A stretch of 64,000 bases of DNA from Mizuhopecten yessoensis. Its lineage: Eukaryota. Of the stretch, positions 228 through 29,958 are shown in pieces. The translations under genes were made by a program, and so were the position numbers. The stretch's first letter is position 1, and each line of letters starts with the position of its first letter. The notes under the pieces were generated by a model, which saw nothing but the letters and a program-made list of their open reading frames with translations, did not search any database and had not been told where the DNA came from. Where the stretch lies: the NCBI RefSeq assembly GCF_002113885.1, contig NW_018405139.1, positions 1,573,797 to 1,637,796 of the forward strand, in the 5' to 3' direction.

Positions 228-1320
228 TTATGCAAAAGAAGAGGGAGGATAGACAACGGACTGGGCAGCCACAAGAGGGCCAAAAGAATACAACCCGTCA
301 GACTGTCCCGACAAAGATCGGAGATAGAACTCCGTAAACGTAGAATGACCCCTCCAAACAGCAGCTGTCATGACCTCAGCGTAAGAAGAACCATTAAATA
401 AGGCCCACGAAGTAGCTAAAGCGCAAACCTCATGAGCCCTTATAACCCCTGACACCCGCAAGGACTGATCCCCTGCCGACTCATACGCAGCTCGAACAGT
501 CTGAACAATCCAGCGTGAGATGGTCGCTGCAGAGATATCAGAGCGACCGGGCTGGAGAGACTGGAACAGCCGAGACGAGTGTCCCGCCCCCCCCTCTGTT
601 CTGGCCAAGTAGTAACGCAAGGCCCGAACTGGGCAGAGCAGGCGATCAGGACAATCCCCATCCAGAGTTGAAGCCAAAGAAGGGATAACCACAAGCCCTG
701 GGGTGAAACCGGGAACCTGGTTCTTAGCTAAAAAGGAGGGATCAGTGGTCACCGAGACCGAAGAATGGCCAGCCGAAAAACGAAGGCAAGAAGAAGATCT
801 GCTGAAAGCATGAATCTCGCTTCTGCGGCGACCGGAAGCAAAGGCTATCAAGAACACAGTCTTGAAAGTAAGAAACTTCCGATCTGTCGACTGGAGGGGC
901 TCGAATGGCGCCCTTAACAAGGAATCTAGCACAAGTGCTAAATTCCACCTAGGGACCAATTGCCGTGAACGAGGCTTCTCAATGTAGAAGCCCCTAATGA
1001 GAGCCGACAATGAAGCGTCCGAGCCCACTGACTTGCTACCATAGAAAGCCAGCACACTAGCAATGGCTGAACGATAGCCTGCAATAGTTCCCGGAGACAG
1101 ACCTTTGTCCCTGAACAGAGACAAAAGAAAGTCAGCTACAACGGGAACAGAGGCAGAGACTGGATCAATCGACCGTCCGACATACCAATCACCGAAGGCG
1201 GACCATCGAGATTGGTAGACGGCGGAAGACGAAGGTCTAAGTGATCCTGCGATGCGAGTTGCAACTTCTCGAGAAAAGCCCGTCTGAGTGAGCCTTCCCG
1301 AGATAGCATCCAACCCTGAA
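228..1320 (-). pseudogene. DIRS tyrosine recombinase (C-terminal ~360 aa of the 786-aa ORF), catalytic HxxR Arg mutated
   Basis: Motifs GRRRSEI, LLCPVRAL..YL, RAHEVCALATSWA (canonical HxxR; TGC at 423-425 replaces CGC), AVWRGHSTFTEFYLR. Stop at 228-230. Confidence 0.88.
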
Positions 1321-2360
1321 GGTGGAGCCGTTCTGGTTCCGAGTAGAACTGCCGGGACCTCGGTTGAGACAGCAGATCCCACAGGGGTGGGATGCTGCGC
1401 GGGAAGTCCACCGGAAGCCGAAGCAACAGAAGAAACCAAGGTTGTCGAGGCCAGAGCGGTGCAACCAGAAACACAGTACAAGGGTGTAGAAGAATATTCT
1501 CCAACACCCTGCCCACCAGATTGAAGGGAGGAAACGCATACGCGTACATTCCCGATCAGTCCTGGGATAGAGTATCCACCACCATGGCCATAGGATCTGG
1601 AACCGGAGACACAAACGTAGGAAGTCGAATGTTCAGGGCCGTGGCGAACAGATCCACATGGCGTCTGTTCCAAACCAGGCAAAGAGACCGGAACACCGAA
1701 CGCTTGAGGGTCCATTCGGTGAGAACCGGGCTCCGAGACCCAGACAGAGTGTCGGCCAGAACATTCAGACGACCTGGAAGGTGCCTCACCGTGAGATCGA
1801 GACTGATCTCCTGACACAGCAACAGGACCTGGGTGGATAAAGCACAAAGAGCCGGGGAACGGGTGTCCCCCCTGGCGCTGCAGATAAGCCACCACAGTGG
1901 AGTTGTCTGTCGCCAGACAAATGACCTTGCCCTGCAGGGAGGGCCGAAGACCCCAAGGTCTGAAAGCTGTTCCCCCGGACACACCCCCGCCGACGTCTGA
2001 CCGGAAAGGTATGCACCCCAACCGGTCATGGACGCGTCGGTGTAAAGGGTCATAGCAGGAGATGCCCGAACCAGAGGAACTCCTGCCAAGACATTGCTGT
2101 CGAGAGTCCACCAACGAGCTGATGCCTTCACCGACTCCGGCAGAGGAATGTACACATCCCACTGCCGAGACACAGGAGACCAAACTGACAGAAGGAACAG
2201 CTGGAGCGGACGGATGTGAAGCCGACCCAAGGGAACCACATCCCACTGAATTCAGGTAACCGAGGAACCGACCAGAACGGAGACCAACAGAGAGGCCTTC
2301 TCGAACATGAAAGCTGGTGGAAGGACAAACCCTAGATCGGTTCTGAACCGAGAACCTAGG
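1320..2360 (-). pseudogene. DIRS pol remnant: RT C-terminus, RNase H and N6-adenine-methyltransferase-like domain, with frameshifts and a stop
   Basis: GSRFRTDLGFVLPP, LYTDASMTGWGA, TDNSTVVAYLQRQGG, RHLPGRLNVLADTLS, VDLFAT, YAFPPF, APLWPRQPWF. Frame switches near 1975 and 1870. TGA at 1556-1558 where Trp is expected. No YxDD RT core found. Confidence 0.85.
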
Positions 2361-5261
2361 GCCACCTACACACCCGCCGCCATAAGCCACACCTGGCTGA
2401 CCTGACCAACTCCACCCAAACTGACCTACAGCAGGGCCTAAACCTGTAGGGCCAGTAAAACAAGCCCCACCAGAGGAGCAGCGTGCACCGTCAAACCAAA
2501 CGCAGCCGCGCTGGCACCTACCATAGGAAAACCTGGGGATGAGGCACAAGGGATAGAGCTGGTAGCATAGGTTTTTTTCACTTACCACCGGTGGACAGTG
2601 GTGGACGGCGTGCTAGACGCTATCACCACGCCAGGGGCTACATCAGGGATGCAAGGAACCCCGGGAGCAGACAAAACTGCCGGGGGCCGGTCTCCGACAC
2701 CAACACCCTCAGGAGTGGAGCGGACCGGCAGGAGGCTACCAACAGAAGCATCCGCGGACACAACANNNNNNNNNNNNNNNNNNNNNNNNNNNNNNNNAAG
2801 GGGGGGGGGGGGGGGGGGGGGGTGTGTTGAGAGAAAGGTCCGGGTCCAATGAAACAAATTATTTTACAACGGCCCCGGTACGGGTCGCAACCGCCGAACG
2901 AACCCCAGGGAAGATTCAACAGAGGTCGAAATTCCGCGGGTGTTCTCCTACCCCTCCTACCCGACTTACCTGAACGACCTCGCGGGCGGGGAGAACCACC
3001 GGCAGGAGTCGGCTGCCAGGCACGGCAAATGTCACACGGCTGCTCCAGAGAGCAAGACCGACAACTAAAACAGTAAGGGTGGGGGTCTCCATCTCAAAGT
3101 AAACAAACCGTCAAACGCGAACACGTGGCCGGAGCCTGGTCGCAAAAAGGCGCAAAATAAAGCAAAACGCTAAATTAAAACAAAATAAAGTAATATAGCA
3201 TTAAAGGATACAATATATATCGGTACAAACAACGCCAGTAGCAGTTGGAACCCGGTAGAAGAAACCAAAACACGTCCGTAAACACGGAAGCCTGAAGGAA
3301 TTTTGAAGTGGGAAGCATGGCTTCGTGTCTGATCACGTGCGTGAATACTGCCGTCTGATTGGTGGGTTTTCCAGGGGTTCCCCATGGGGGGAAATTCTTT
3401 ATTTACGTATGTAAAGAGCCAAGTAAGGTTGGAATATGCATTATAATGACTGGTAACGTATTTTGAAATAGAAAGGAAAACAAGATTTCATTCTTTCTGC
3501 ATGAAGGGCTATTTGTTTTTCATCAAGGTATGTTTTCTTCATTGTTTTCTATATGCCTTCAATTGTTAACAAAATAATAATTGAACAATAAATACATTAA
3601 AACGCCTTAATGAATAAGACACTTTGTTATATATTTGCCGATCTTACGCTCTTACTCCAGTAATGTGAATTTAAGATCCTGCTTGCGAGCAAATATGGTT
3701 TTCAATTGTTCAAATGCATAATTGTTAACTTTCCCTTCTTTATTAAAAAATATATCATTGGATTTGACATTTTTTTCAAAAGTTATATTCATTTTTATGT
3801 TTCTGACCAACGAACTCCATACCAGTACCAAAAAACCCGCCAATGAAACTATGCATGTTCTGATCAAATGCACAACCTGGTCAACGAATTCAGAATCATT
3901 GAGATGGAGGTTACCGTATGTAGAAAAGTCGTTGAAATTCTCTAGTGTTTTGCCTGCATTGTGTCAAGATCCTTTAAAGACCTATTATTTGGGTATTAGA
4001 GTGTTAATAAGCAGACTACTTGATTGGATTTGACGACTGCCACATGATGCACAAAAACACATGTCTTCCTAAACCCTTCATTTTGCCTGCGGTGGAGCTC
4101 CTATTTCATCTTTCGACCTCGCGTATAGATATATGTAGCTTGTTTTAAAGCAGTTTTTGTCACTGAATAGTTAATGCAGAATTTCAAATGATATTTGAAA
4201 ATATTTGAAATACATGTATTTTATGCCATATATAAATACGACAATACCCATCTATATAAACACCCTCCAAAACAGTTGTAATACCGTACATGACCTTTGC
4301 ACACCACAATGAATGACGCATACAAATAGATTATGCAATTCACTGGTGTACGTTCAGTTGCTAACCGGAAATGTATTACATCTAGTTTAGAAGTCGGGCT
4401 ATATATTATTTATTCATTTAGGAAGTCCTTATATATAGCTAAATTATAATTCTACTTACACAGTATTTGTTTAGTTTTGATCTATATGCTACAGTGTAGA
4501 ACAATGTAAGTTGCATGTAGTGAAAGACGATTTACGGGTCATCTGATCCCCTTTGATCCACCATTTAAGTTCAGTTACACATGACTACATAGTACAGCAC
4601 TGTATTACATTACAAGGGATGCAACTCTTACGTGATGATCACCATCAAAGTATTTGTCATCGTGTGCCTCAACTCAAAATTCATCTAATGTTAAAGATAC
4701 ATTTTTTATTATTAGACTAAGGCATAGAGACATCAAAGAATCCACAAGTTAATAAATCAATTGATATACCTCATTTATAAGCCATAAAAACGTAAATATT
4801 GAAGTTATTTTATTCCCACCTGAAAACATTAACACTATTTTAAAGTAAATCTTACTCCTTTGGGAAGCAAAAAAAAAAAAAGAAAAGAGGCTGAAAAACA
4901 TAAAACTCTTTCCTCTCGAAAGGCTGTTTTAAAATATAAATCCCTAAGAAATCCAAGTTTGTGCCATTTACGACAACATGCTTATATAATGTTATATCCA
5001 TCTTTTCGGTGCTTTGAAATCGATACAAATTATATCAAAATAAACAAATCAGATCTCAGCCAATTAGATTATAGGAATGTTTCAAGTCATTCAATAACAT
5101 TTGTATGCTTTAAGAAAAGCGTCTTTGATAGATTCTCGGAAAGGGAAATATTTTAGGCGAAGTGCCAAAACGAAGAAGATTGAATAAAATACGTTCTATA
5201 CATGCACATATACTGTCAATACAAGTATGTTAAAATCCTTCTCAATATAAAGTAGAAAATG

Positions 5262-6030
5262 ATATACCACAGGCATAGCGTCAAGACAAAAATCAAATTT
5301 ATATATACCATTGGCATAGCGTTTAGACACAGTTAAATTGTATATACCATTGTCATAGCGTCAAGACAAAGTAGAAACTTATTTACCATTGGCATAGCGT
5401 CAAGACAAAGTAGAAACTTATTTACCATTGGCATAGCGTAAAGACAAAGTAGAAACTTATTTACTATTGGCATAGCGGCACAAAGTTAAAACGCCGTAAA
5501 TACCATTGGCATAGCGTCAATACAGTGGAAAATTATAATCCATTGGCATAGCGCCAAGACAAAATAAAAACTTATATGCCGTAGGTATAGTGTCAATGCA
5601 GTGGAAACTTATATACCATTGGCATAGCGTCAATACAGTGGAAACTTATAAACTGTTGGTATAGCGTCAAATCAAAGATAAACATATCTACCATTGGCAT
5701 AGCGCCAAGACAAAGTAAAAACATTATAAATTTGGCATAGCGTCCAGACAAAATAGAAACGTATATATCGTAGGTATAGCGTCAATGCAGTGGAAACTTC
5801 TATTCCATTGGCATAGCGTCAGGACAAAGTAGAAACTTCTATTCCTTTGGCATAGCGTCAAGATAAAGTTTAAACTTATTTACCATTAGCATAGCGCCAA
5901 GACAAAATAGAAACTTATTTACAACAGGCATAGCGTCAAAACAAAGTAAAAAACTTATATACCATTGGCATAGCGTCAGTACAACGTAAAAACATAAAAC
6001 CTATACACATAGCGTCAGGATAAGATAGAA
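5262..6030. repeat. Minisatellite, 39-bp unit, ~19 diverged copies
   Basis: CCATTGGCATAGCGTCAAGACAAAGTAGAAACTTATTTA recurs at 5308, 5347, 5386, 5425 and onward. Confidence 0.95.
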
Positions 6031-7042: not shown

Positions 7043-10000
7043 ATGATGTCACCAAGACTGCTACTGTACAGCATTTTAAGTGTGCTGTCACTGCCGGGAA
7101 ATGTGTACTCCTTAACACCTTTACAGTGAGTATAACTAGTAATTAACCTCCTAAAAAAAGCTAAAGTAGCAAGGTTAATTTTGGAGATATGACCATAAAG
7201 AAAATAGTCATCATCGATACTCAAGGGGTTGCGATTCATTTCGCTCTCTGCAACCCTGGAATATGTCATAGCAAAATCGAAAGCTCAGTACCAGTGTGCA
7301 CACATTGTTGATTAGATGAAAAGACTAGTTTGATCCTTTGATGAACATCAAAAGAATCTGACGGTCGCGTAACGGTACCATTGACTGGCTTTGAAATCGG
7401 GTGTGCTCCTCTGTAATCTTCAAAGTTCAGGTACATGTATCAACCTTAGCGATTGGTTAGTTTCATTTTACCTGAGACCAATCAAATAGCTCGCCGCATT
7501 CCTTCAATTTTGCTTTGACATATTCCAGGGGTGCAGAGAGCGAAAGTGAGAGTAACCTCAAGAGTATCGAGGATGGGAAATAATAGGTAGGTATAGAAAA
7601 GTAACGACAGGAGATCCCAGCCGCCCAGAGACCAGCATTTACATTTTGTTTTCTTCAATGAACCTTAGTAGAAGACATAGGCTTAACTCCAAATTCTGCA
7701 CGGCACCTTCATTAGTCGCCTATTACGTATATGCAGTGGGATACAGCAGGTTAATGTTTTCCCGAACTTAAATAGTTTACATTCAGAGTTTGTACAAATA
7801 TTAACTTACACATTCATAGTAATTACAATGATTGATTAACGTCTTCATAATAAGTTTAATAACGCAGTATAGAGGATTGACAACGCAATACATATTTGTA
7901 TATTTGCAAATATAAACAAAAACATTTGTTCATTAGGTACTTCGTCCAACTATCTACCTTGTATTACTTTTTCAGGAGGGATGAAGTCGAAAACATGCTC
8001 CAGAAAGACCATTCGACGCCTCCATTTTACCATACAGGTAATAACCCGTTTTGCTTTAGGGTGACGGTTCGCACATTCCTTCAATATTGGATATGCCTTC
8101 CTGTATTGTACCGATGTTCAACAATTCTTTAATACAATGAAGCATGTATGCCAAACAAAATTAAACAACATCAATATTCTGAGTTAATAGTATTTGCACG
8201 AAAATATTCACCTTTATGCTTTCTGCTTCCTAAGGAACACCTGCAGAAATATATATAGTCATATTCGTGTCTCGCGATATGTCGGCTATAAACCTTTATG
8301 CTGTCATCAATCACACTATTATATCTATTATATGGTTGTTATAGTTTCCTGATGATCTGCGTTTCCCAGTTCGGTCTGGTTATATCGATAATGCTAGTTT
8401 ACATATTCAGACATACCACACATTTTAAGGACTCTATTTTTTCTGAAGATTGTGTAATAGTGAACAATTACTGTATGTAGTTAGATATTTATTTACAGTT
8501 TTCAACTCTCATTTTACTGCTTTTGCTGTTGAGGTGTTAGATGCGACGAAAAACATCACGATGGCACACCTGTATCAAAGGGTGATCACTGCCGATTTGT
8601 TTTATGAATAACTGGACACTTCTCGTATGATCCCGCAAATAAGTTAAGTTTTATCAAAACAGTGTATCTGTTACTCTAGTAGTGGTACATATCGGATTAC
8701 CCTAAATTCTATAAAAAAGTTGTAAAAACGAAAAAAAGCAATACGCTATCCTCAGTATACTTTATTGTTTGTTAGCATTTGTCAGTTTAGACAGATACAA
8801 ATTTAATTGATACACTTAATCTATAACCATAACGTTATTTATGTTTACTTTTCATCCAGGTAATCGGACTGTGATACGAATCAGCATCTATATGACAGAA
8901 ATGAGATTTTTGAAGCGAGTGAGTATATTAAGTTGTGTTACAATCTAAACTCAATAGTGCAGTTTTATAAATCGAAATTAGCTTATGATACGTGACAAAT
9001 GATTTAAGAATAATAAAAATTAAAAAACACGGAATTTTGTGTATGTTTATTACCGGAACTTGATCGCTTGCAATCCTATTACATATCTTACTCAATTTTT
9101 TAATTAAGATGTTACGTCCTCGTATACAGCTAAGGTCATACGAATGCAGTCTCAACCAAAGTTTAGCCTTCTCATAAGTCATTATAAGTGTCACTGCAAT
9201 GAAATGTCATAATCTGGACACGGTAACATGACACTCCACCGGTAACATTATACTGATAACAGGCCAACCAGTCCTAGATGCAACACATTGTAGGCTGAAC
9301 ATAAAGAAAAAGGCAACAAGTACGATTTGCTACCAATTTGGTTTGTCTCACCCAGAGGACATTATCCATAAAGTTCCTCGCTTTCGCAGGTGTTCCAACA
9401 CCAGGACCAAAAGCGAAGTTTCACCAAGAAAAGACATTTGTCGAAACAGAGAGATAACAAAATGATCTAGATGTTGAAATTGATGCAGTAGACATATAGT
9501 GATCGCTGTTGTGTTCCCAGTGGATGGAACCAAACAATTTTCAAGTATTTCCCGTACTAATTGCCTCTGACAACATGTAACGTGTTACGTGAGGTAAAAC
9601 ACATCTATGCAGAGGACACAGAAGAAACCTTCACCGCTTCTATAGGGAAAGGAAATGGTCACTGTTTCTAAAACACTACATCTAAAATAAAATATGACAT
9701 GTTATTCACTTCATAAATTAAAATCGTCGAAACAATTTATTCTTAGACTTTTATTACTTCATATAAATCACACAAAACAATGAAAGGTTACACTGTATTA
9801 ATAACGACTTACGGTTTCACGAAAGCGTTTCCTTTTTATAATAATTACCATAACATTGAGACAGTTTCTATTTTATCGGAATATATATTTCTCAATTAAA
9901 CAAACCTTCACGATAATATATCTAGCTAAAATCATACGTGATTTATAGGAATTTAAACAATATTTGTAGATTTTCTTTTAATCAATACGTCGAGTAAGGT

Positions 10001-13000
10001 CTGTCTAAGCATCACCTTACACATTGACTATATTGCATACCGTTGGTCAATGTGCGGAAGGCAACGGGTTCTGTCCCAGGCAGAGCATATCTTAGTTTTT
10101 AATAGTGATAGTTGTTCCGGTTGGAACACTCTGATGGGTGCCTTTGGCATTGCATTAAAATGGACATCGGATCTTCGCTATCGCAATGAGGCAAATGCAT
10201 CAACATACATCATCCAGTAATCACGCTTACATTATACAAATGAAGTCATGTCTTTGAATGACTTAGCTGTTGATACATTTGCTTTATGATAAACCCTTTC
10301 AATCAAACCAAATAAGAAAAAAATCATTGTTTTTATTGCAGACTGAAGCTGATTTTACGTTTTACTATTATCAAATATGGGACGATCCTCGCCTCAAGTA
10401 CCCTTTTGCAAATACTACTGATTTTGGTTTGAAAGACTACCACGTGGTTCGAAGAAAATACTTTGATAACATATGGCTTGCTGAGAGTTACATCGAAAAT
10501 GAGTTACACTCACGTGTGCATGATTCGTCCATGTCCAATCGTTTTGTCTGGCTTCTCTCCAATGGAACACTTGTGTACAGTATGAGGTAGGTTAATAAAT
10601 TGTCATACAAGAAATGTATCCATGGATGAATATATTTCGATTTTAGTGAGGTTATGAGGTGAAAACTTCATTTGAGCACGAGTAATTTATATTATTTTCA
10701 TAGATGACGAATACCTGACCAAAAAAAAAAAAAAAATCCTTATGAGTACATTTATTTTCTGTGAATGGTTCATTTCTATATTTATCATTAGTCTGATCAG
10801 AGGGCACATATTTTGTTTCAATAAACTTAGCAACGTGTAATCGGTTCATTAGGAGTAACCGAGTAAGAGGGAACAACTTGCATAAGCCATAGTTATATCC
10901 GGCCACATCTACTGTTCATGACGTTCAACATTTGTGCATCGTTTGCAGAAAATTTACACAGCTCCGCCCACAAGTATTGTTGTCGACGTCATGGAAATTT
11001 TCAACTTCTATGACCAGGTTTTGAGATGATTACTCCAGTTTGTGGAAATAATGGAAAAAATGCTTCGTCTGATTTGTACAGGTTTTTCAATCACAAATAT
11101 TCATTGTGCCTAGTATAATGTGATAAAAAAAGATTCCAATAACCATGTACTTCAGGGGTCGGTATTGACAGATAACACTGCTGAGCATTAATGAATGTTT
11201 GAATATTTCAGAATGACTGCTGGACTTGTTTGTAATTTGCGAGGAGTTCTATTTCCAAATGCTTTATTTGTTTGCAGACTCAAGTTTCGGATTCGTAAGT
11301 TCACACAATCTTTGTTTACAATATAGTATAAACGTTAGGAACCCCTTCTGTTGTTTTGTTTGAGGGCCCATGATGGCTCAGTGGTAAAGGTATCTGACCA
11401 TCTCTGATCAGTTTCCCTCCACCACGGCTTGCGGGTTCGAAACCACCGCGAGCAGTTGCAAGGTACCCATCCGCAGGTCGGTGATTTTCTCCGGGTACTC
11501 CGGTTTTCCTGCAATCTGTGTTGGAGTAAACGTTATATGCTACCTGACACAATATACCTATGATTTTTAATAATTAGAGGTTGTAGGCTATCGTACACAT
11601 TATGTCTGTGTTAAATACGCCATCATTTAATACAGAAACAAATGATTTAAAGAATTTAATATACGTATGTCATGTAAACCTTTAGGAAAGACATTCTATG
11701 TCGCAGTAAAGTGGCATACAGCCTTAACACACAATATTTGTATCCATCATATAATAATGTTAAATTGGACAACGTTTTAGTTATCACCAAATACGTATAC
11801 ATTATTAATATTATGGATATTAAGGGAGGAACACAACAGATTTTGATCGAAAAAATAAAATATGACCATTCTTATTTCGTATTTTTATTTCATTTATTTT
11901 AAGATTCGTACACGAAAGAAAAAGTATCGTTGGAATGGGATACCCTGCAGAAGCCTATTATTCCTATGGACTTCGACAATGAGGATGTTTCGATGGATAA
12001 ATGGGAATTACTGCATTGTACCTTAGACGATAGCGCAGGTATACAGAACTTCAATATCAAAATAAAAGTGTAGATATACATCCATACAGTGTATAAAATA
12101 ATCAATTAATTCAAAGCATTAATTATCAAATATCCAATCAAATAATATAACAAAGGAGTGACGAATGGCGAAAATATACAACCAACTGCGAAAGAGACAA
12201 TTCGTCCGCTAAATCCTCTCCCTTGTGCGGCGTCTCGATTCACCACACTAGGGAAAGGTATTGGATCGGCAACCAACAGACCTTCTACTCTCGTGTTATG
12301 AACGAACAATAACCGCTTGTTCTCTGTCTGTGTCCCTTTCCGGCGGTTATTTGACAAGCTGGTTCATTGATATGCGTCCGCTCACTCTCCAGCTTAGTGC
12401 TGCATGTCGGTGTATGAGACTAATTACAGACGCTGTCATATTTAATAGACGAATTGTCTGTTTCTCAATGTGTTCGAAACTCCTTTGTAATACTTATTTC
12501 TTCTAAACTCACTAATTCTGATAGCATATCTTTCACAAGAATAGATATTCACCATATATTTACCAATTAAAATTGTATTTTGAGGGATTCTGTTCCATAT
12601 CTCAATTAATGTCATTTGACGAATCTACGTTGCATATACTTATAAAGATTGATTTCCCAGCTTCAGAATCTTTCTCCATGCTCACTTTTCCCGGGATTAT
12701 CGAATCTCTTTGTTGTTGATCGCGCACACAGTATCATTTGTCAACGATGCGGTCAGTGTAAATTCTACCTTATTTTGTCTACTCTTTTGAATTGCGTCTT
12801 ATACTCACTCATTTAAAATACATTTATTTGACATAACCAATACGTTTTTTGTGATTTGCAAATATTTTTGCTATAAATACATTGCATTTTTGATAATGAT
12901 TTTTAAGGCAATATTTCCCGTAAATTTCAGTTGTAGATAGTTCCTGCTTGGAGCTCAAACTCGGCGTCAAGGTCGGTTTTGCGAGTAATGCTGTACGTAT

Positions 13001-13957
13001 TTTCATGCCAAGTATTTTCATCGTATTAGTCGGATGGTTAAGTTTCTGGATCGAGCGATCAGAAGTGTCAGCAAGAATTAAACTTGGTACACTCTCAATG
13101 ATAGCAATGATCACGGAACAGGTAGGGGCGAAATTCTTCCTACCTGTGGATTTCAAAGTAACAGCATTCGAAGTTTGGTATATTATGTCTTTAGTTTTTG
13201 TCGTTGCTGCAATGTTTGAGTATACATTCGTACATGCTGTGGATGTGTTCCAACTGAAAGTGAAACGACAGGAGGATCAAAGAAAAGAAATACGTGAAGT
13301 GTCAGGCAGCGATGTGGATACGAATGGAGACAGTAGGGTTGGTTCTACGGACCAGATCGAAATGGACAAGATTGATTCGGTAGATATTTATTATATTACT
13401 TCAGTATTTGTGAAGCCCAAAGCCATATAAAAGGTGCAGTATATCATATTAAGTTAACAATCAGTTACTGAAGAAAATATCAATAATTGAATTTCGTTAT
13501 TATTAAAATAGTTTATGGTTTAAAAACCCCGAAAATATATCATTTTGCAACTAGTTGGTAGTAACACAAACTGGCACACTTTTAAATTGATCTCATGAGA
13601 ATTATAATAGTAATTCAAACTGAACCCACATGTTGTAAGGTCAGTGCAAAATTAAATGAACCAGTAAACGAAGTAATCGGATAATTAAGACGACTTATTT
13701 AACCATTCGTGTATTTTTCTAGTGAATAATATTATTTTGTTTCATGCTCTGTGTTCCAGGTGGGTCCCATCAATGATCAAAGTATCAGTACAGAAGATAA
13801 CAACGACTTGATGAACACCTGTTGTGCCAGGTACATCATGATGATTTCAACGGGTCGCGTGGAGAAATACTTCCGCATTTTGTATGCTATCGCCTACCTT
13901 GTTTTCCAGTTTTTCTTCTGGACTATTTCACTGAACTATGAAGAAACCAATATTTGA
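7043..13957 (+). CDS. Cys-loop ligand-gated ion channel subunit, GlyR/GluCl-like orphan, paralogue A (~437 aa). Exons 7043-7125, 7976-8037, 8860-8918, 10342-10586, 11212-11294, 11904-12038, 12931-13379, 13760-13957
   Basis: All introns GT-AG with consistent phases. Signal peptide MMSPRLLLYSILSVLSLPGNVYS. Cys-loop CNLRGVLFPNALFVC (C-x13-C). Second loop-C disulfide. M1 PSIFIVLVGWLSFWI, M2 SARIKLGTLSMIAMITEQ, M3, M4. Probable 5'UTR exon ending at donor 6877/6878 and acceptor 7035-7036. Confidence 0.92.
7209..7575. mobile_element. MITE-like element with ~70-bp imperfect TIRs (first coding intron of paralogue A)
   Basis: CATCATCGATACTC...GAGTATCGAGGATG inverted arms. Internal and terminal similarity to 59589-59897, with a fragment near 14200-14270. 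Confidence 0.75.
11362..11517 (+). mobile_element. tRNA-derived SINE with V-type domain, 3' truncated
   Basis: A box TGGCTCAGTGG, B box GGTTCGAAACC, V-domain motif TTCTCCGGGTACTCCGGTTTTCCT. Confidence 0.75.
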
Positions 13958-16900
13958 TAGAAGGACGATATTTACCGTTGGACTTTGTTAGCAAGAAAGA
14001 AAGCTTTTCACTAAGAAATATTTCAATATAAGCACGGTTTTCGACATGTACGAAAGTGTTATGTCGAAAACGTATCTTACGTTAATCAAATAAAGAAACA
14101 GTATCAAATCCTGCGTTCCCAACAAAAGCGATCGGATTATGAAAGGGTTGATATACTGGAAATTTGTTTCTATCAAAAATTGTCAAACTCTCCTCTGAAC
14201 ATCCTCGGAATTCCAGGGGTAACGCTCACTCGCATTCTTTGCATCACTGTCATGGTATAATCAAAGACACGCGTTAACCTATTTTTAAACCCTAGGTTTA
14301 TGCCTGTCCTTTGAATGTTGCAGACGAGCGACATCCAACTTCGAAACCGTCACAATGATGTTAAAAGCTTACATTACATATTACATACTATTAAAAGATA
14401 CATACTGTATATTGAATCTGTTTATTTATTGATTCTGTTTTGACTGCGTTATAATTATTAGTACAAAGCAGATATTCAGTAACAGCTGCAGGCACAGTAT
14501 GAAATAATTACTAATTGTAATAATTAATATCGAGTGTATTAACGCACCCCAACAGTTCCGGGTTTATCACCATACAACAGACACAGAATAAATATTAGGT
14601 TGAGGCTATCAACCAACTTCAAAAAACAAAAGATAAGCCGAGTATTTAATCTTACAATGCAAAATATCTTTTGGAAAAAATAATCATCGTCCCAGACAAA
14701 GAAGGTCTAGCCTCTCATTGCCTTACACGTAACACGCGTTTGACTGAATCTATCAGCACACTACACGAAACAGATGTCAGTTCGATCCTATCATATCACT
14801 ATAAAGAACAAAGGATGAACATCTCACTTGAACCTTGATTGTGTTATTTAGTTTTTGTCTCCATATCAAACTGTGTGATTTTCAATATAGAAGTTGCTGT
14901 AACGAACAAACGGCTTAAATTGTTTGACGTGGTCATCATATTCAAGAACTCGATACGTTAGTTTAGTAAGTAGCAATACAAAAGGGCGCAATCAGAACAA
15001 ACATCTGATCAATATTAGGTCTGCACATACATATATCTACAGCTTCATTAAGCTGATGTAGTTTCTTATGACTCGTTAGACGAAAAGAAAAAAAAGGAAA
15101 AGGTTTGTGTTACTTCGACATGCTCTGTATTTAAATATCTATCTGCTTTTCAGCTGATAGGTTGATGAGAGACAGGCTTACGTAATTCGAGCACATTAAT
15201 TGAACACACTGCTAGATGAAGAATGGGAAAAATTAGTCGACAGAAAATGGAAGGGAGAAAAATGAAACAGAGGAACAAGAAAATTATAAAGACTAATTTT
15301 AATTACATTTCAAAACCTTGGAGCAAACGAAGTCTGTTCGGAAACCTCATTTTTTCCCCACAAACAAAGGATTAGAAAAATGGGAGATAGGAATCATTTA
15401 CTAAAGCGGAGGAAAGAGCAGGAACAAGAACTCTCCTCAAGAGGCATTTTGGGTAGGTTACTCAACGAGGTTATATGGCTCGCTGCTATTATCCGTAAAA
15501 TGTTGTAACGGAAATGTTATAAAATGTGTAAGTCAAGTAAAATCCTTAGTTTATGTTGCAAAGATGTACCAAAACCAACCAATTTACATCGCTTCATCTG
15601 CAACTGAACTGTACATTTGTAGCTTTGAATTATGTGAATAGAAAGCATCGTTTTGATAGTTCAATACTACACATGATATGTTCACGTGTCAAAATATAAT
15701 ATTCTATTCTGTATATCTTTACTGACGTGTTTGCCTTTGATATTAATAATATTTTACTAGTTAGGAAATAAAGGCCTTTACAGTAAGAGGATACAGACTG
15801 TATAAAACCACAGAAGGATGCTACCAACACATCTGTCCACAGAAGTTATTACTAAACTCATTGAATTCTTCCCTAAGAGCATTGGTGGACACTTGAATCC
15901 GTCTGTCTGCTAGTCACAGCTCTCTGCTTTAACCAAACAGTAATTAATAAAAAAAAAACTGTACTTCGGCTTCAAATTACATCGATTAGCATTTTTGCAC
16001 GCTTACTGATGTGCATATTTTTTCAATCAAAATATGTTATTAGCTTTCCACATGATGCTCGATACGCAGGTGGATAATCAGTGCATTTAATGAAGTTCAT
16101 ATAACTGAAAGCTGGTTTGCCTAACAGCATTATTAAATGCGAAACTATAGGTTACGTTATAAGATGACGCATAACAAGTTATTGAACTTTGCATGCGCAT
16201 ATCTAAGTAAGGTCACACCAAGGGAAATAACTTTTTTTTTAAAATGCGTAGCAAAGATTTGATATCGTTGATTAGAAATCTGAAAACGGTTGTGTTTTTG
16301 TGAAACAAATAATTTTATGACATGTTTCTGCTCATTTTCTATGAACAAATAAAAGTTGCAAGAGTCAATAGATTATTTTGATAGTGGTCAGATAGAGCAA
16401 CATATCAAGTTGAGATATTTTGTCAGCATAAACAGGCCTGTTGTTGTTTAACACTGCTGCATTTACTTTTTTATATTTTAAAATACACCACGAACTTTGC
16501 TGAACTGCATGTGCATTAAATGAAGTATCCGCTGCCGCATCTCAAAAGCGAGGAAGTTTTTGATTTCCGTCCCCTTACCATGACAAACCAAAGTTCTTAA
16601 CATTGTTACTTGCTGCGCTCTGCTTGACGTTGAGCTAAAAAATGGTTAGCGGGAAATGTATCCGTTGCTTGTATAATGTGAACTGGTAGAGTGCTCTGCT
16701 GCTTTTGGCTTGGCATTGCAGTGAAATCGTGTGTGTAGCACTTTAAAGTTTGCATCATATCCGTGCTATCGCAAGGAGGCAAATACACCAACAAACCGCC
16801 TTCAGCACACACGAATACATTACACGCACTATGTTATTGCCGCCAAAGTTATTAGATTGTTATGACGATTCTTACAATGGTTATATGTATTTAGAGGAAA

Positions 16901-17039
16901 AGTCGAGACAATGTGGTTATTTCATTTCACATTAATTTGTTTGGATTATTATATATGTATTGCCATTGATAAAAAATTACAATCAATTCATTATCATCAA
17001 GAACTCAAAATGCATTACCCTTGGGATCTTGAAATTCAT

Positions 17040-17200
17040 TATCCTCCTGTAGAATTTGAAATTCATTATCATTGATTACTTAAAATGAAGGACGCCACAA
17101 ATTCGTTTTCGTCAATTTCATGTCTTGACATTTTCTTGGAGAATGACAATAATATCCGCCTCACCACCAAATTCAATGACAAACAATTTTCACGTTGAAA
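17040..17200 (+). mobile_element. Penelope-like element RT remnant
   Basis: Degenerate YPPxLEI..KDATNS..S.SCLDIFLENDNNIRLTTK..DK, typical of the Penelope RT C-terminus. Confidence 0.55.
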
Positions 17201-18469
17201 ACTTTTTCTCGGCAGATCAGTAATATTCGCCAAATGCATCCTACTATAAATTGTAGAATAATTTGTTTTTGTCCTTTTGTTTTCTTTTAGTTCATATCAT
17301 TGTTTGGTTCTATCAACTTTGAGCTCCCAAATGATTCTCTTGTTCTATGTACATTATCTATTTAATTGTCTACGTCTAGACCTACTGCGGGGATACATGT
17401 ACGTTACCGTTACACTAAGTCTACTTGTCTTGACCTGGCAGTCAAACTACTCTGATAAACATTATACATTGTGTGGTGATGATTATGTGTCTCATAAAAT
17501 ACTTGTGATGGATGTCACTAATATACCTTACTGATCATTAATGGCCAGGTGTTTTGGAAGTATTAGGGTTTAGTTAGTGTTCACAACCTATCTCCAGTTA
17601 CATCTACACACCAGCTACATACGGTAAGTAAAAGTAGTGTCTTTAATGTTTTACATGATTCATTGTGATAGAATACAAGATATTGTATTTAAATGGTCTA
17701 CTGCTTATAAAAATCATAATTCCTATTTATGCTTTCTTTTTCTTCCTTTCTTTTTTTAACGATTCGTTATTTGTATTTCCATTGTGGTCTTTTGCCATTT
17801 TATCATTTATTTCTATGCTTATTTAACTATTCATTTGCGATTTAAACTGCGAGGGTAAATTAGGTGCCACAGTTCGTTGTTTTTGATAATATATATTTTA
17901 CAATCTTCCGCTGATTGACGTCAGCTTGCAAATGTTTGTCATAGTTTTGATGAGAAACGATTAATGCACTTACATTATAACATTTTAACTCTCACATAAA
18001 ATAACACATTCATTTTTTCCTAAAATAATTTTACGCGTGTAGTGTCATGTTCACTATCTTTTGTGTGTATTTTTTAAATCAGTTTTAAGATGATAATTTT
18101 CAAGATTTAAGCTAACTGATTAAAAATATAAGTTTATTTATGTATCCAGTATTAATTAGAAAACAGATATATATTTTATAAACGTTTCCGTTTCTATGAG
18201 ATCTTAATTTAAAAAATGTATTAAAATACTGCAACATAAGTACAAATTATGTACTGACATAGAAATCAATTATTTAAGCGATGTATCGAGTTATATATTA
18301 TTGTCTATCTTTTATTTGAAATATTTGCTTACTAAGAGTTAGTTTACTCAATCAATGGTATAACTGAGAGTTTTTAACTAATACTGACTGCGATAGTTTT
18401 AATAATTACATTATAATTCTATGCGAATCCTTTCCATTTGTTCGAACCGTTTGTAGGCAAAAAGATATC

Positions 18470-21400
18470 ATGGCGGCCATAATATTGAGACCATTTTGCA
18501 TTTTGTTTGCAATATCCTGTGGAGGTGCTACAGCTGAATTATCCCCATCACAGTAAGTGTATAATATACTTATATCTTCACGTATTAACCAGACGCACCT
18601 GCTGACTTATTTGGTAACAAAATTGAAGAGTTACTTTTGATTATTGTCTTACTATTTCTGGTGTCAATTTAACTTTTATTCCTATGTTTCAGGCGATATC
18701 AGCTAGAAGCCATGCTACAGAAAGACAATTCGAAGCCTCCTTTTTATCACACAGGTAAACGTTACCTTTCTGAAACTCATCAGAAGCCATCCTCAAAGGG
18801 TTACGCCTTCTTAGATTCTCTGCATCTGGAATATGTCTTGGCGAAATCTAATTATCTTTAGTCGAAACCTTGTGGATGTTTTAAGCAGATTGTTTTTATC
18901 CTTTGGTGTACATAAAAAACTGGAATTTCGAGGATGTTCGGACGCATGAAGTAATTATCGCCACCTCGGTAACAGAAACACTTGCGTTTTAGCATAGCTT
19001 CATCGGGAGAATTTTGCACAAATTTTACACATGTGCTGAGAACAAAAATAGACTACATGAAACGCTAGCTTTTGTTGTATAGACACATATTTGGGAATGG
19101 TCGAAAATGTACTCTCAAAACAAAATGCAGCATTTTTTCTTGAAAAATGATGAAACCCATATACATAATTAGTCCACATCATCATGTACATGCCAACTGT
19201 AGTGCTGATTCTGTTTTCAAATTTAGATACATGTTATTTTACAGGGGTTATTAATTGTACAAAAATATCCCCCATGACCATCGTATGCTACTCTATACTA
19301 TATAGCTACTACCTTTACCTAAACTAGTGTTTATGTAAATCGTGTCAGAATGCATTTCAGCTACTACAAGGCTACAACTAACAAATAACTGATAGTAGCA
19401 GAGTTCCGTCGTTCGTACACTCGTTGGAAAGATATTTTTCTGTTTATCCTGATGCATAATGAAGTAACATTGATACATAACACATCAATGGAGGCACGGT
19501 AGTCTAGTGGCAGGACGCCGGGCTTGTGACCGAAGGGATGCGGGTTCGAGTAACGGCACGCCACTGCGTTGTACCATTGAGCAAGATACTTTACTCTGCT
19601 TGTTCCAGTCTACTCAGCTGTAAACCAGTACGTGGTTGGGCAGTTCTAGAATTTTGAATGCTAGCTGTTAGCGCCGAAATGGCAGCTCCGGCTGTATGCT
19701 CCCCAGGTAGTTGAGAAAGATATTGGCTGGTTACAAAGGCCCTATCACCACAGATAATAATTTATGAACCGCTTTGAGACGACCTACGATTTAGGTTGTG
19801 ATAAAGCGGTAATAAGAACCACGCATTATTATTATTATTATTATTAATGGACGAGGGAAGGAGTGGGGTAGGTGTAGGGGTATATTTGTCCTACTCCCGT
19901 TCCTTTGCTAATGCCTTATTGTTTTCTATTTAAGGTTACCAAACAAAGATCACCATCACTGCACATATGACCCAAATGAGGTTGATTGATACGGTATGTT
20001 TTTAAGAAAATATTTTTTAATAAAGTAAGAACTTAATCAGATAACATACCTTTAAGATATTGTATTGATTCGCTCTACATCTGGCCAAATAATTTGACCG
20101 AAAACCAATACACGTATATATCGTTTCATTTTCTCTTTTACATATATGGTTAAACTCATGCAGTAGAAAATTTCAGTTAATCACAAGAGCAGATCCATTA
20201 ACCTTTCACCACATTTGTTAATATCATAGGTAATCAAAGCTGAAAAATAAACATTTATAAACATCAACTCCATATTAATTGTGTATATTTGTGGACAAAA
20301 TATAATTATACAAGCAAGACAATTGAAATGATTGGCTAATAATATTTGGCTTCAGGTCCATTGAGTGGCATTGAGTGTAAAATGATTCTTTCACCCGTTT
20401 TCATATATTTCGACTTTCTGATATTTATGAAATACGTATGATTAATTTGTTATAGCTTATGTAACAAATTCGAAATGTTGTCCTTTTCATTTATTTTGAA
20501 CGAAGAAGGCAATGATTTGAAACGTTTTCTTCTCTTTTTTAGTCGGAAAGCGATTTCACATTTTATTACTACCAAATTTGGAACGATCCTAGACTCAAAT
20601 TTCCCTTCGGAAACAACTCGGACATCGACAGGAATACTTACCACGTGGTCCGACGTAAATACTTCGGAAACATATGGCTGGCAGAGAGCTACATCGAAAA
20701 TGAGTTACGCTCACATATCCACGATTCGTCAATGTCCAATCGTTTTGTATGGCTTCTTTCGAACGGAACTGTCGTATACAGCATGAGGTATGTTTTGAAT
20801 GGGTTTTTTCATAGAAATAAATATATGACGATATTTTACATTTATCTTGGCTATTATTTTTACTTTTACTACGTCGTACAAACTATTCTAGTAAATGAAT
20901 GATTCAATTGGCACATGAGGTATATTTTGATGTTTGTGTTTATTGTTTTTTTATAGTTTATTGGTTCTTTTTTCATAGATTCTATTATAAATTATCATGA
21001 CAAGTAATAAGAGAAATACTTTTTATGTAGAGGCATTTTATTTTATATTTCAATATTTGTGTGCATTTTGGTTTAGCGTTTTGTTTCTTTGATAATAGAT
21101 CCTATTAAAATTTCCATGGAAAGTAAATCTCAACGTTCTATATATAGAGGCATTGGATTTGGTACGAATTCAAGTTTACTTTATAAAACTATTTAAAAAA
21201 AGTAATGAAAGTTATTTTTTTATAAATTCAAAGTTTTGATTAAGGACGGTTGTTTCAAACTTTCCAATTGTTTTAGAATGACTGTGGGGCTATCGTGTGA
21301 TCTGAGAGGCGTTCTATTCCCCAACGGTCTATATGATTGTTTGATGAAGTTCCGGATCCGTGAGTAATGATTTTAATGTTATTAAGAAGAAGTATTTGGG

Positions 21401-24213
21401 GATGTCTTTCCTGGAATGTCCAACAGGACGACAATTGAACTTTGTTGGGGATTTCATAATATGTTTAATTCAGAAAATTCATTGGAGTATCAATTTAAGC
21501 AGAATATTTATATATATACTGAAAATCAGTTTATATAGAATATCAATACAATTGGAAGATAAAATTGATATAGGCTATCAGTATAATTGCTTTTGAATAT
21601 CCTTTTAAGTAAATCCTTGGTCAGATAACAAGGGTTCGTTACAAATGTCTAATACTATGTTTAGGTGTAGTGTTACCTATATAAGTATATAATATGTGTA
21701 TTAGACATCTGTAACGAACTCTTGTGATCAGATAATGGAAAAATACTCTTAAGGTGAAGGATTTCGAACATGATTAATTGCATTTTTCAATAGATAAAGG
21801 CGTTTCTGTGTTCTGACAAAATGTGTAATACATGCATGAATGCTAAATTTATTGCTAGTATGCCAGGTCATACATACATTATTTCATATTTCATTTGAGA
21901 TTCGTACACAACGGACCAGGTATCAATGGAGTGGGATTCCGTCAACAAACCGCAGATAAATGTAGATTTTGACAACTCAGAAGTGGCGGTTCATGCATGG
22001 CAGTTCTCTAAGTGCTCCTCAGATACAAGTGCAGGTACGTTGTACTGTACCAAATGTTAGGTAGTGTAAGTTGTTCTTGGTTGTATTAATTTGTTCCATT
22101 TAAACAAGACTGGACCACTTGTCTCATACTATTTTCACAGAAACAAAATGTGTAAAATGAAATTTCAGAGAAAAAAACTGAGAAAAAAAGACAAAACTAT
22201 GCAAGCACGGATGTAAAACAAAATGGAGCACCTGAAGTAATTATTAATTAAGCATAAAGATAGGAATTATAAGACATCTGTATCAGACATTATATACGCT
22301 TACAGTTTTACATACCAGTATACAATGCATCTCAATCATTAACTTGAAGGAAGATTAATTTAAAATCCTGAAGCATATAGAAGTTCAATACATATTTTCA
22401 CAAGCGAACACTTAAAATTACAATACATATTTCCATAATACACGTATGGCTTGAAATGTGCCAAATGAAAATTGCTGAAATAAAACTGACTGGCTAAAAC
22501 GAAAGTGCATTTTTGTTGATAGAGTGATGGTGAGTTGATAATATATGCAAATCTTGGTTCATTTATGGTAATGGATGAATTTGGGTACTCTATTGTGTCG
22601 GATGCCAACCTCAAAAATGTTTAATACACTAAAGGACAAACAAACAACATCAAATTTACATAAAATATATTCCTAGTTAGACATATGCTGTGCACCCTTA
22701 CCTAAGGCCTGGTTTTATTTGTATTTCAGTTGTTGATAGCTCCTGCTTACAGCTGTTGGTAAACATTCACTTCAGCTTTGCCAGTAACGCTGCACGATTG
22801 TTTTTGCCGAGTATTTTTATCGTCCTTGTGGGATGGCTGAGTTTTTGGATAGAGCGGTCGGAGGTATCCTCAAGGGTAAAGCTCGGAACGTTGTGTCTGT
22901 TAGCCATGATCACCGAACAAGTGGGGACAAAGTTGTTACTGCCAGTCGAATTCAATATATCATCGGTAGAGGTGTGGTTTGTGATGTCTCTAACTTTCGT
23001 TGTGGTGGCCATGTTTGAATATACGTTTGTACATGCTGTAGATATCTTCCAAGAAAAGGTAAAACGACAAGAGGAAATGAAAAAGAAAATCCGTACACAG
23101 ACAGGTGGAATCGGGGATACCCAGGACATCAAGCAGAGAAGCAATGTAGATCTTATCGACATGAACACACTCTCATCGGTAAGCAAATTTGAATGAAAAA
23201 ATATATACTTACAACAATTATGAAACAAGTTATTTTCAACTTATATTGGTTAAAGGTTTTTTTATGTGGGAGAAACTGGAGTCCCTGGAGTAGACCCACT
23301 TGATCGGACAGGTGACCCAATACCTTTTCACGTCTGATCGGGGAATAGAACCCCGGTCGTTTTAAACAGTTGATTATCCTTTACGTCTTAGCTACCAAAG
23401 TTCCGATCTGATTTGTTCAGTAGTAATAATTAATTTTCGACTTAAATAACGATTTTGCAATTTTTTGATATATTATTTCATGTTTTTGTGGGTAAAAATT
23501 GTTTTCGAAATTACTTTTGATCTAATAGTGACAATTTTCGTTGGGGATTTAATTTCGCGCCATCTTTGGTGACCGCGAATATATCGAAATTAAATCCCCA
23601 CGAAAATTGCCAACTATACCGTACATGTCTGTAGAAGACAAAAAGTTATTCCAAAAACAATTTCAAATATATTATAATACACTTATATACCTTTGAGATT
23701 ATATTTTTGCGTGTTTTAATCTTTATTATTTTCTTGGTCAAAACGGTGTTTTTTTTCGAAAAACAAGTCCAGAAAAAATATTAATCGTATCATAGAATGA
23801 CTTCAAGTTAAAGATCTGGTCATAACAATGGAAAACAATCCTATGTATTCAGATTTGTGTGAATTCACAAAATATTGAACCGACGAAAAAGAAAAGCTGT
23901 ACAGTAATTTGGGATTAAAATCATACTCCACTCACCGTCAATATTGCCAATGAAAAGTAAGATATTTTCTATTTCACAATTTCGTCACATATCTAAAATG
24001 ACTGTTATTTAATTGTAGGATGGTTCTGCAAGTGGAGAAACAACCGGAAATAGAAATGATGACCTGATGAACACCTTCGGTGCCAAATATATCATGATGG
24101 TGCCGACAGGTGTCGTTGAGAAGTACTTCCGGATCCTGTACCCGGTTGCCTATCTCTTCTTCCAGTTCCTGTTTTGGACAATCTACCTTAATTACGAAGA
24201 AGTATATGAATAA
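18470..24213 (+). CDS. Cys-loop ligand-gated ion channel subunit, GlyR/GluCl-like orphan, paralogue B (~436 aa). Exons 18470-18552, 18693-18754, 19935-19993, 20543-20787, 21277-21359, 21900-22034, 22730-23178, 24019-24213
   Basis: First seven coding exons match paralogue A in size (83/62/59/245/83/135/449) and phase. Signal peptide MAAIILRPFCILFAISCGGATA. Cys-loop CDLRGVLFPNGLYDC. M2 SSRVKLGTLCLLAMITEQ. Stop TAA 24211-24213. Confidence 0.92.
19490..19846 (+). mobile_element. Full-length tRNA-derived CORE-type SINE with (ATT)n tail
   Basis: A box TAGTCTAGTGG, B box GGTTCGAGT, CORE-like TTGAGCAAGATACTTTAC...CAGCTGTAAA, L2-like 3' end CGCTTTGAG...AAAGCG, (TTA)n tail. Confidence 0.8.
23265..23360 (-). 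mobile_element. V-SINE fragment
   Basis: Plus strand GTGGGAGAAACTGGAGTCCCTGGAGTAGACCCAC is the reverse complement of the V-domain motif. B-box complement GGGAATAGAACCC. Confidence 0.6.
23533..23623. mobile_element. Short inverted-repeat MITE fragment
   Basis: AATTTTCGTTGGGGATTTAATTTCG ... CGAAATTAAATCCCCACGAAAATT, ending TATACCGTA. Confidence 0.6.
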
Positions 24214-28300: not shown

Positions 28301-29958
28301 GTTCTGTGTTTAGTCATGTTATTCTCGTTAATTCATCTCAGTTAACTTTACCAATGCCATTCGTCAGGTCATGGTCATTGGATGAACGAATCAACATAAT
28401 TTAGACTACTGGACATCGGCTCCTGATCCAGGGTTACCTTGTACCTACGACTATGAATTCATTTGTTTCATGTCAATCTTGATGAAATATATGTTTGAAT
28501 TTTAAAGTTCTAGTGAATGCTTAGAATATAAATTCATGTTAACAAAACGTGTTTTGTTCCGACAAGAGTTGTGCATGCCAGCTGTTTTACATTAGTATGT
28601 ATATGTACCTGTATGTGTGCAGACCGCATATCCGTATTCTAATCTGATACATTTGAATATTTTTCCATTTTGTTATGTTTGTAAACACCAATTTTAATTT
28701 ACCAAAATTATAACCCTACTACCAATCTTACCGTTGCAACACTTGATACCTGGTTCCGGGTTGTTTCGCCCGAAATCCCGTTCGCCCTAGGCTGATTCGC
28801 GCTAGGTTGTTTCGCCCTAAAACAAAAATATTAGGGCGAAACATTGTTTGGTATTTTCTTTTAATTTCGGTAGTTTTAAGTCACAAATTAAGTGTTCTTG
28901 GTCTTCTATATAATTTTTATTAATTTCATACACAAAATGTGTCACTAAGCACTTCATGTGATTTTGTCATTATTATGTTACTTCGTCCAAATTAAAGGAT
29001 ATTAGTGAGATATTGATAGTATATGGGTCCCCAGTAAATCTTGTATGCCATTCGAATTCCCAGTCCTGGACTAAAAACCCAATCTAAGAATAAAAAAATA
29101 TATTTTAATATCTCAACAATTTGATTGTTTATAATTTTTTTGGTAAAATCTACAATAATTTCAAAAGGCATTTTCTAAATATGACATTTGGAATGAAATA
29201 TTTGAATCATCTGATAATTTAGAAATTAACGATAATTGATCATATTTCAAGGAGGTAAAAGATGTAAGCTGCAGTCAACTGTGAAAAATACTGATTTTTA
29301 CATATGTTTGGCAATATAGTGTCTAATAAAATGTGCATTGAAAAAATAAATATATATATAAATCTGTATGAAGAAAGAAGGGGCCAGGTGCCAATACAAT
29401 TTTTTATCACATAATGTACTCTGTTATCCAGTGAATATAACCATGGTGGGGTTTTTTGCGTATTAACCCATGTAATATGACCTATCAGCCCTGTGATTGG
29501 TTGTAAGTTTCAATTGTTTCAATACAGGATTCCATATATAAAGTGATGACTACATATTTGTCTACCACAATGTGTTTATTAATGTAAGGAAAGGTATGCA
29601 ATTTATGTGTGCATAGACCAAAATATCCCTAAAACTGAACATACATGAGTTATTTAGTGCAACAAGTTCAAATTCAATTTTCGAATAATTATTGACGTCT
29701 TTAAATAGACATCTCGGCGAATTTTATACATTTGGAAAGGAAACAACTTTCATTTTTTTTCTTATGGAATTTTATATTTTAGATCTCTTAATGGAGCCAT
29801 TTATAGCTTTGTGATGAGAATTGATCGTTGAACAAGATGTATACATTCAACATGGGGAACCTGTTGCAGAAGGTGTTGAACCACCAGCTTTCATCTCTAT
29901 TTCTTCTGCTGCCCTAACAATATGACTGTAATGAATGATTTGTCACACGTATTGAGTC

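Follow-up and report, generated by a model that had tools for sequence, protein, structure and literature searches.

Two tandem scallop Cys-loop receptor genes without the conserved Cys-loop Asp and pre-M1 Arg: candidates for a pore-gated chloride channel

We have analysed a stretch of 64,000 nucleotides of the scallop Mizuhopecten yessoensis (contig NW_018405139.1, positions 1,573,797 to 1,637,796 of assembly GCF_002113885.1), called the window in the following, which contains two tandem genes, A and B, for anion-type subunits of pLGICs (pentameric ligand-gated ion channels). In both proteins the two partners of the salt bridge between the Cys loop and the segment before the first membrane helix (M1) are missing. 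The allostery of pLGICs is held to centre on this Asp–Arg bridge, and gating is lost when the bridge is removed by engineering. Judging from the alignments, the classical coupling residues are gone on both sides of the interface between the extracellular and membrane domains, which is a wider loss than that of two residues. The two genes are intact and under purifying selection, and are not decaying. The reading that we favour, with a probability of roughly 40%, is that A and B would form a chloride channel that has lost most of its coupling to the classical binding site, with a gate in the membrane domain that is tonic or dependent on pH or ions, and that is not opened by a neurotransmitter.

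An earlier note, made from the letters of this DNA alone, had proposed that the Cys-loop Asp is replaced by Ala in A and Gly in B, and the pre-M1 Arg by Val and Phe, respectively, and had suggested a structural comparison with the glycine receptor (GlyR) as a check. The comparison bears this out. The Val and the Phe are residue 9 after the loop-C Cys, and from this Cys through M1, M2 and M3 there is no gap relative to GlyR in any of three aligners, namely a hidden Markov model (HMM) alignment to solved GlyR chains, a profile–profile alignment (probability 100) and MAFFT L-INS-i. In the AlphaFold models of the two proteins (mean predicted local distance difference test scores of 85.3 and 86.7), the residue comes last or nearly last in a beta10 strand that has no break, just before M1. 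We have also considered a register shift that would bring a neighbouring Lys or His onto the Arg site, and rejected it, since all three alignments are free of gaps and beta10 is unbroken in both models. The hydrophobic alternation of beta10 would set the Val or Phe on the face of the Arg. The residue pairs are the same in all orthologues, Ala with Val in 3/3 for A and Gly with Phe in 4/4 for B. Both proteins keep the Phe-Pro of the Cys loop (the beta6-beta7 loop, C-x13-C, with its invariant Pro) as well as the loop-C disulfide, and a polar Asn follows the Phe-Pro.

To put these losses in perspective, a full HMM scan gave 5588 matches, and the counts here refer to the 149 other proteins among the best 150. 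Of the sequences that could be scored for the Cys-loop Asp, 134 of 139 have it, and for the pre-M1 Arg the count is 140 of 147, where three of the seven exceptions are misaligned or mis-predicted rows. In our alignment, all 84 canonical rows have both D148 and R218 (GlyR numbering). According to the available text of Jaiteh 2016 (PMC4795631), the Asp is found in 93% and the Arg in 94% of 561 pLGICs, which makes them typical and not universal, and the paper mentions a few sequences that lack the motif.

The rest of the coupling interface is affected as well. The earlier note had estimated the beta1-beta2 loop to be about two residues shorter, and this shortening is real. Between beta1 and the conserved Trp of beta2 both A and B have two residues fewer; in the sequence alignments the gap falls where beta2 begins, and both AlphaFold models have a 4-residue beta1-beta2 turn. 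In addition to the M2-M3 residues listed in Table 1, K281 is missing in A and B and the loop-A Pro is absent in most of the proteins, while the canonical rows keep P275 in 83/84 and Y279 in 79/84 cases. The classical coupling of binding to gating is probably altered, as had been suggested.

In the membrane domain, A and B have a Lys at position 2' of M2, which faces the pore in GlyR, a Glu at 14' and an Arg in M1 at the position of GlyR Q226 (Table 1). Lys or Arg at 2' is found in 6 of the 149 other proteins among the best 150 matches, all of them within the bivalve clade discussed below. M2 further has Leu at 6', Leu at 9' (Ile in Mizuhopecten A) and Lys at 19', and its identity among orthologues is 94–100%. 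At −2', a Ser is found in 9/9 proteins of A, B and a further scallop paralogue, C; the Pro of the PAR motif at this position is present in 66 of the 84 canonical rows and is thus not universal. The Ala/Ser-Arg at −1'/0', the absence of a −1' Glu and the 2' Lys point to anion selectivity, and the best solved-structure relatives of A and B are all of the anion type. In GlyR, Q226 is reported to touch 19' of the adjoining subunit, and the Q226E substitution to open the channel without ligand (PMC3895786), which means that the corner between M1 and 19' can set the resting open probability. Since 19' is a Lys in A and B, facing the Arg, the 14' Glu would be the likelier partner of the M1 Arg.

The ligand pocket has been changed too, with Tyr at R65 (loop D), Arg at E157 and His at F159 (loop B), and Ser at F207. 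Loop C lacks both aromatics, and the amine-binding aromatic box is absent. With these residues replaced, recognition of glycine, GABA or glutamate is not supported. The NCBI proteins are named 'GABA receptor alpha-6-like' and 'rho-1-like', and in the absence of the loop-D Arg and the loop-B/C aromatics such database names (GABA rho, GlyR alpha or GluCl '-like') are not supported either.

The evolutionary rates of the two parts of the membrane domain are very different. Relative to the protein mean, the parsimony rate of the M2-M3 loop is 1.59 in 12 Arg-less proteins compared to 0.67 in the 84 canonical ones and 0.55–0.84 in 30 sets of 12 drawn at random from the canonical ones, whereas for M2 it is 0.40 compared to 0.64–0.93; the branches depend on one another, and divergence is deeper in the canonical sets, which inflates the M2 contrast and should oppose that of the M2-M3 loop. 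At 50–60% overall identity, the M2-M3 identity is 27% for the Arg-less proteins (14 pairs) and 72% for canonical ones (184 pairs), while M2 has 81% and 69%, respectively, the pairs again being non-independent. Because the pore is tightly constrained while the coupling loop is relaxed, opening off the classical path is the best explanation. The rings of 2' Lys would prevent a collapse of the inner mouth and might be titrated by pH, and the M1 Arg and the 14' Glu would make a new ion pair in the upper membrane that tunes the hydrophobic gate at 6'/9'. The extracellular domain would then serve chiefly in assembly and in the vestibule.

It is important to point out that, besides the limits of the rate test, a number of observations weigh against this reading. 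ELIC and GLIC channels from which the Asp or the Arg was removed are reported to be no longer activated or expressed and, according to the available text, to have no basal current (PMC4778918), so that the loss of the bridge alone predicts a shut channel. The suggestion of the earlier note that this loss could itself create a leak is therefore not upheld; the loss is insufficient, and tonic opening would need another cause, for which the 2' Lys, the 14' Glu and the M1 Arg, which the note had missed, are candidates. The hydrophobic gate at 6' and 9' is present, and nothing shows it to be open at rest. The Phe-Pro and the disulfide of the Cys loop are retained in both proteins. Loops A–E have 73% identity between A/B and C, loop B is also well conserved, and the Arg and His of loop B and the aromatics of loops D and E are invariant in A, B and C, which as far as sequence can tell is what a real ligand site would need. 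Finally, A has possible substitutes for the lost charges, namely an Arg at the tip of loop 2, a Lys just before the Arg site and a Lys at 279 (each in 3/3 orthologues), and an acid is present at loop-F position 186 in 7/7 A and B proteins. In A, the Arg of loop 2, the Lys ahead of the Arg site and the acid of loop F may make up a substitute ion pair. The B orthologues have no conserved basic residue at the matching place (His, Gln, Arg or Gly).

The two proteins belong to a larger group. In a tree of 104 proteins, picked from those fetched for having a single, roughly full-length domain set, 20/20 Asp-less rows are set apart by one branch, which has a Shimodaira–Hasegawa-like approximate likelihood ratio test (SH-aLRT) support of 99, with long-branch warnings. 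The named members of this clade are bivalves only and comprise, besides A and B, proteins of Solemya (P0071), oysters (P0018 and P0022), Argopecten (P0032), Mercenaria (P0154) and Pinctada (P0012), and the scallop paralogues C and D. Word-index searches gave pectinid and oyster relatives only, and the wider clade comes from the HMM scan with its best 150 of 5588 matches. The Arg is kept in the Solemya protein, which has Glu at the Asp site, in oyster P0018 and Argopecten P0032, which have Gly there, and in the oyster P0022 group, which has Lys. The basal members of the clade thus keep the Arg, and the nested ones have Ile/Met, Lys, Gln, Thr, Val or Phe in its place. Lys is found in Mercenaria P0154, whose tree position is unresolved. 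In the scallop genome, paralogue C (L019, G000:C76726) has Gly and Gln at the two sites and a 2' Lys, and paralogue D (L020, G000:C76566) has Gly and Thr and a 2' Ser. A, B and C, all in one genome, have in common a 2' Lys and an interface segment that is specific to the clade. A fragment, P0015, which covers the pre-M1 Arg and has it, and does not cover the Cys loop, is the sister of A and B in a tree of the membrane domain only (support 94/86), in which the outgroup row P0031 was mis-cut.

The earlier note had described the two losses as a co-loss. Since Solemya, oysters and scallops have Asp-less relatives that bear the Arg, and since the Arg is also found in P0015, the history is instead staged. 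A simultaneous loss was rejected on the same Arg-bearing relatives, and the term co-loss fits the end state only. We infer that the Asp was lost first and that the Arg site was labile later, with several losses or one regain; the tree suggests that the loss of the Asp would have freed the Arg site. A more far-reaching and rather doubtful proposal is that this bivalve clade unhooked its extracellular domain stepwise, from Asp to Glu to Gly, followed by the Arg and the M2-M3 signature, and that gating would have moved to the 2' Lys ring and the pair of M1 Arg and 14' Glu. In the literature searched, with few subscription journals, we found no molluscan clade or motif loss of this kind; the supplements of Jaiteh et al. 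may include oyster members, and two molluscan surveys deal, in their available text, with nicotinic receptors (PMC6896357, PMC13174522).

Two further observations concern members of this group. Mercenaria P0154, of which near-identical copies exist, has apparently lost the Cys-loop Phe-Pro and has Trp at 9'; the Phe-Pro motif contains the only absolutely conserved residue according to the available text of Jaiteh 2016 (PMC4795631). The scallop locus L011 looks like a fifth, Arg-bearing member.

The statement that the reading frames are kept holds. Both genes have 8 exons, of which exons 1–7 have the same sizes in the two (83, 62, 59, 245, 83, 135 and 449 nt), and in the gene models from the window all 7 introns are GT-AG and there is no internal stop. 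The interval given earlier, 11212..22800, holds the Asp and Arg sites of both genes, and the genes reach further on either side (7043-13957 and 18470-24213). Pfam PF02931 and PF02932 reach the cut-off or better in both proteins. A matches the annotated protein P0006, and B is identical to P0001 from exon 2 onward. In RefSeq, the N-terminus of B is modelled differently and shows no evident signal peptide, while exon 18470-18552 encodes a hydrophobic, signal-peptide-like leader, and one contig of run X2 has it spliced to exon 2. Orthologues with the same residues at both lost sites are found in Pecten and Argopecten for A, and in Pecten, Argopecten and Ylistrum for B. Between A and B, dN is 0.19 and dS 1.69 over 262 codons (LWL85), giving a dN/dS of ca 0.11, with dS near saturation and no dS estimate from NG86.

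Splicing was followed in run contigs that are guessed to be RNA, with which their GT-AG skips are consistent. For B, the joints 1-2, 2-3, 3-4, 6-7 and 7-8 were found, and since joint 6-7 is seen, the frame of the pre-M1 exon is fixed; joints 4-5 and 5-6, on either side of the Cys-loop exon, were not seen in these contigs. The exons of A have nearly no cover in the 8 runs. However, the contig runs were picked with an exon of B, and the near-zero cover is therefore uninformative on A. Where covered, the B contigs have no listed difference in beta10, M1, M2 or M3, and in the M3-M4 loop (23069-23132) they have five, of which four are non-synonymous.

As to known channels, the fold of the A model is that of the GlyR/GABA-A/GluCl group (Foldseek E of ca 1e-25; VIA Z of ca 28, root-mean-square deviation 2.3–3.1 Å over ca 330–350 residues), and A and B have the Cys-loop and loop-C disulfides, the 0' Arg, the 9' Leu/Ile and the M1 Pro in common with it. 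They differ from this group in lacking D148, R218, the loop-2 acid, K276 and Y279, in the shorter beta1-beta2 hairpin, and in having −2' Ser for Pro, 2' Lys, 14' Glu and the M1 Arg. Human ZAC, a precedent that the earlier note lacks, is a gated channel with no pre-M1 Arg. This natural pLGIC lacks also the loop-2 acid, is not opened by a neurotransmitter, and is reported to be opened by Zn2+ and protons via a short local path starting at the Cys-loop tip (PMC11707272, PMC11359809). However, ZAC is a cation channel that has kept the Asp, whereas in A and B, which belong to the anion branch, the Asp is gone as well, together with the M2-M3 signature; ZAC is outside the top 60 solved relatives of A and B.

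Another comparison is with the arthropod channels secCl/pHCl-2/CG6927, SsCl and Alka, which are divergent, lineage-restricted anion pLGICs with constitutive or pH-dependent opening and, in the available descriptions, no neurotransmitter agonist. As a heteromer, Drosophila secCl is reported to be sensitive to pH and open constitutively (PMC6522505), and SsCl and Alka to be alkaline-gated (PMC13065796; bioRxiv 2025.10.29.685377). These form arthropod-specific clades, though, and their published pH sensors are in the extracellular domain or an 'activation domain'. In sequence searches SsCl is no nearer to A and B than GlyR or GluCl are, and the 104-protein tree holds no identified pHCl/secCl row. 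By analogy, A and B may work like ZAC or like the secCl/pHCl channels. They are not members of the ZAC group, and probably not of the arthropod clades either. Schistosome channels without the Cys-loop cysteines are reported to keep the FPxD motif (PMC9874803). A search of the Atlas gave generic pLGIC clusters only.

Other explanations have to be weighed against the pore-gated channel. It is possible, though less likely, that A and B are an orphan ligand-gated, probably chemosensory, chloride channel, in which a new ligand, possibly anionic or hydrophobic, binds the altered pocket and the coupling has been rewired through a hydrophobic packing that involves the Phe-Pro tip of the Cys loop and beta10. 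The size-complementary pairs, Ala with Val and Gly with Phe, speak for this, although they effectively amount to one change, as do the retained Phe-Pro and both disulfides, the pocket residues that are invariant in A, B and C, and the signalling of ZAC without the pre-M1 Arg. However, the M2-M3 loop, which would be the membrane-side partner, is fast-evolving, with K276 and Y279 lost and P275 lost in 2/4 B orthologues. The Asn after the Phe-Pro is polar, and ZAC retains the Asp and is reported to need its Cys-loop acids. The hydrophobic coupling interface that the earlier note had put forward is likewise weakened, the M2-M3 loop to which it must couple being among the fastest-changing parts.

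We consider it improbable that the two are accessory subunits, which would join canonical Asp/Arg-bearing subunits without any gating drive of their own and tune conductance, rectification or desensitisation via the 2' Lys. Relaxed coupling beside a conserved pore and subunit interface would fit such a role, one or two 2' Lys per pentamer would be easier to accommodate than five, and the genome has many canonical anion-type subunits (18 matches to the transmembrane exon). Yet the GlyR-beta-like and GABA-A-delta-like rows (labelled by sequence reading) keep both the Asp and the Arg, as do 84/84 canonical rows, and the 2' Lys and interface segment common to three paralogues suggest assembly among themselves. 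Decaying duplicates, or an artefact of alignment or assembly, might be suspected from the divergent sequence, with 18–24% identity to GlyR. This is largely refuted by the open frames, matching exon sizes, same residues in four scallop genera and dN/dS of ca 0.11, by the spliced B transcripts, and by the gap-free register in three aligners and the confident pLGIC fold, and we regard it as very improbable indeed.

If A and B are indeed pore-gated, the clade would contain natural intermediates on the way from an allosteric receptor to a pH-dependent or background channel. Here the bridge and most of the remaining interface have been lost naturally, in genes on which purifying selection acts, and the living combinations of Glu+Arg, Gly+Arg, Gly+Gln, Ala+Val and Gly+Phe make it testable whether a pLGIC pore works without the classical coupling, and what replaces it. 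Through A and B, a hitherto unrecognised chloride pathway of bivalves, pH-sensing or epithelial, might come to light as well.

Table 1. Genes A and B and the sites discussed in the text (positions in the window; residue numbers of GlyR).
Feature	Position	Strand	Description	Basis
Gene A	7043..13957	+	anion-type Cys-loop subunit, 437 aa	GT-AG introns, open frame, Pfam ligand-binding domain (LBD) and membrane domain
Gene A exons	7043-7125, 7976-8037, 8860-8918, 10342-10586, 11212-11294, 11904-12038, 12931-13379, 13760-13957	+		
Gene B	18470..24213	+	tandem paralogue of A, 436 aa	GT-AG introns, open frame, spliced contigs
Gene B exons	18470-18552, 18693-18754, 19935-19993, 20543-20787, 21277-21359, 21900-22034, 22730-23178, 24019-24213	+		
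A, Cys-loop Asp site (D148)	11261..11263	+	Ala, motif FPNA	alignment
B, Cys-loop Asp site (D148)	21326..21328	+	Gly, motif FPNG	alignment
A, pre-M1 Arg site (R218)	12972..12974	+	Val	alignment, AlphaFold model
B, pre-M1 Arg site (R218)	22771..22773	+	Phe	alignment, AlphaFold model
A, beta1-beta2 turn	8910..10344	+	shortened, split by intron 3; Arg at E53	3/3 A orthologues; E53 match suggested by alignment
B, beta1-beta2 turn	19985..20545	+	shortened, split by intron 3; Thr at E53	4/4 B orthologues
A, M2-M3 loop	13134..13169	+	without canonical K276, Y279	alignment
B, M2-M3 loop	22933..22968	+	51% identity among B orthologues; Pro275 gone in 2/4	alignment
A, M1 Arg	12996..12998	+	at Q226 position	9/9 A/B/C proteins
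B, M1 Arg	22795..22797	+	at Q226 position	alignment
A, M2 2' Lys	13080..13082	+	pore-facing position in GlyR	alignment
B, M2 2' Lys	22879..22881	+		alignment
A, M2 14' Glu	13116..13118	+		alignment
B, M2 14' Glu	22915..22917	+		alignment

The window has some other features. An intronless nicotinic-type Cys-loop gene is found at 56111-57577 on the reverse strand, in which Pfam recognises the LBD and the membrane domain. Both the Cys-loop Asp and the pre-M1 Arg are retained, there are no vicinal loop-C cysteines, and the gene fits the intronless expansion of nicotinic acetylcholine receptors reported for bivalves. At 29956-33444 on the forward strand there are exons of a gene whose last open reading frame matches MATCAP, a microtubule tyrosine carboxypeptidase (PF08014, E of 2e-6). 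Overlapping, GC-rich open reading frames at 228-3100 on the reverse strand, with a gap of N inside, resemble, when judged by eye, a retroelement of the tyrosine-recombinase (DIRS) type and gave no Pfam match. Finally, a 39-bp tandem repeat with 19.5 copies and 74% matches is located at 5242-5993, ca 1 kb upstream of gene A.

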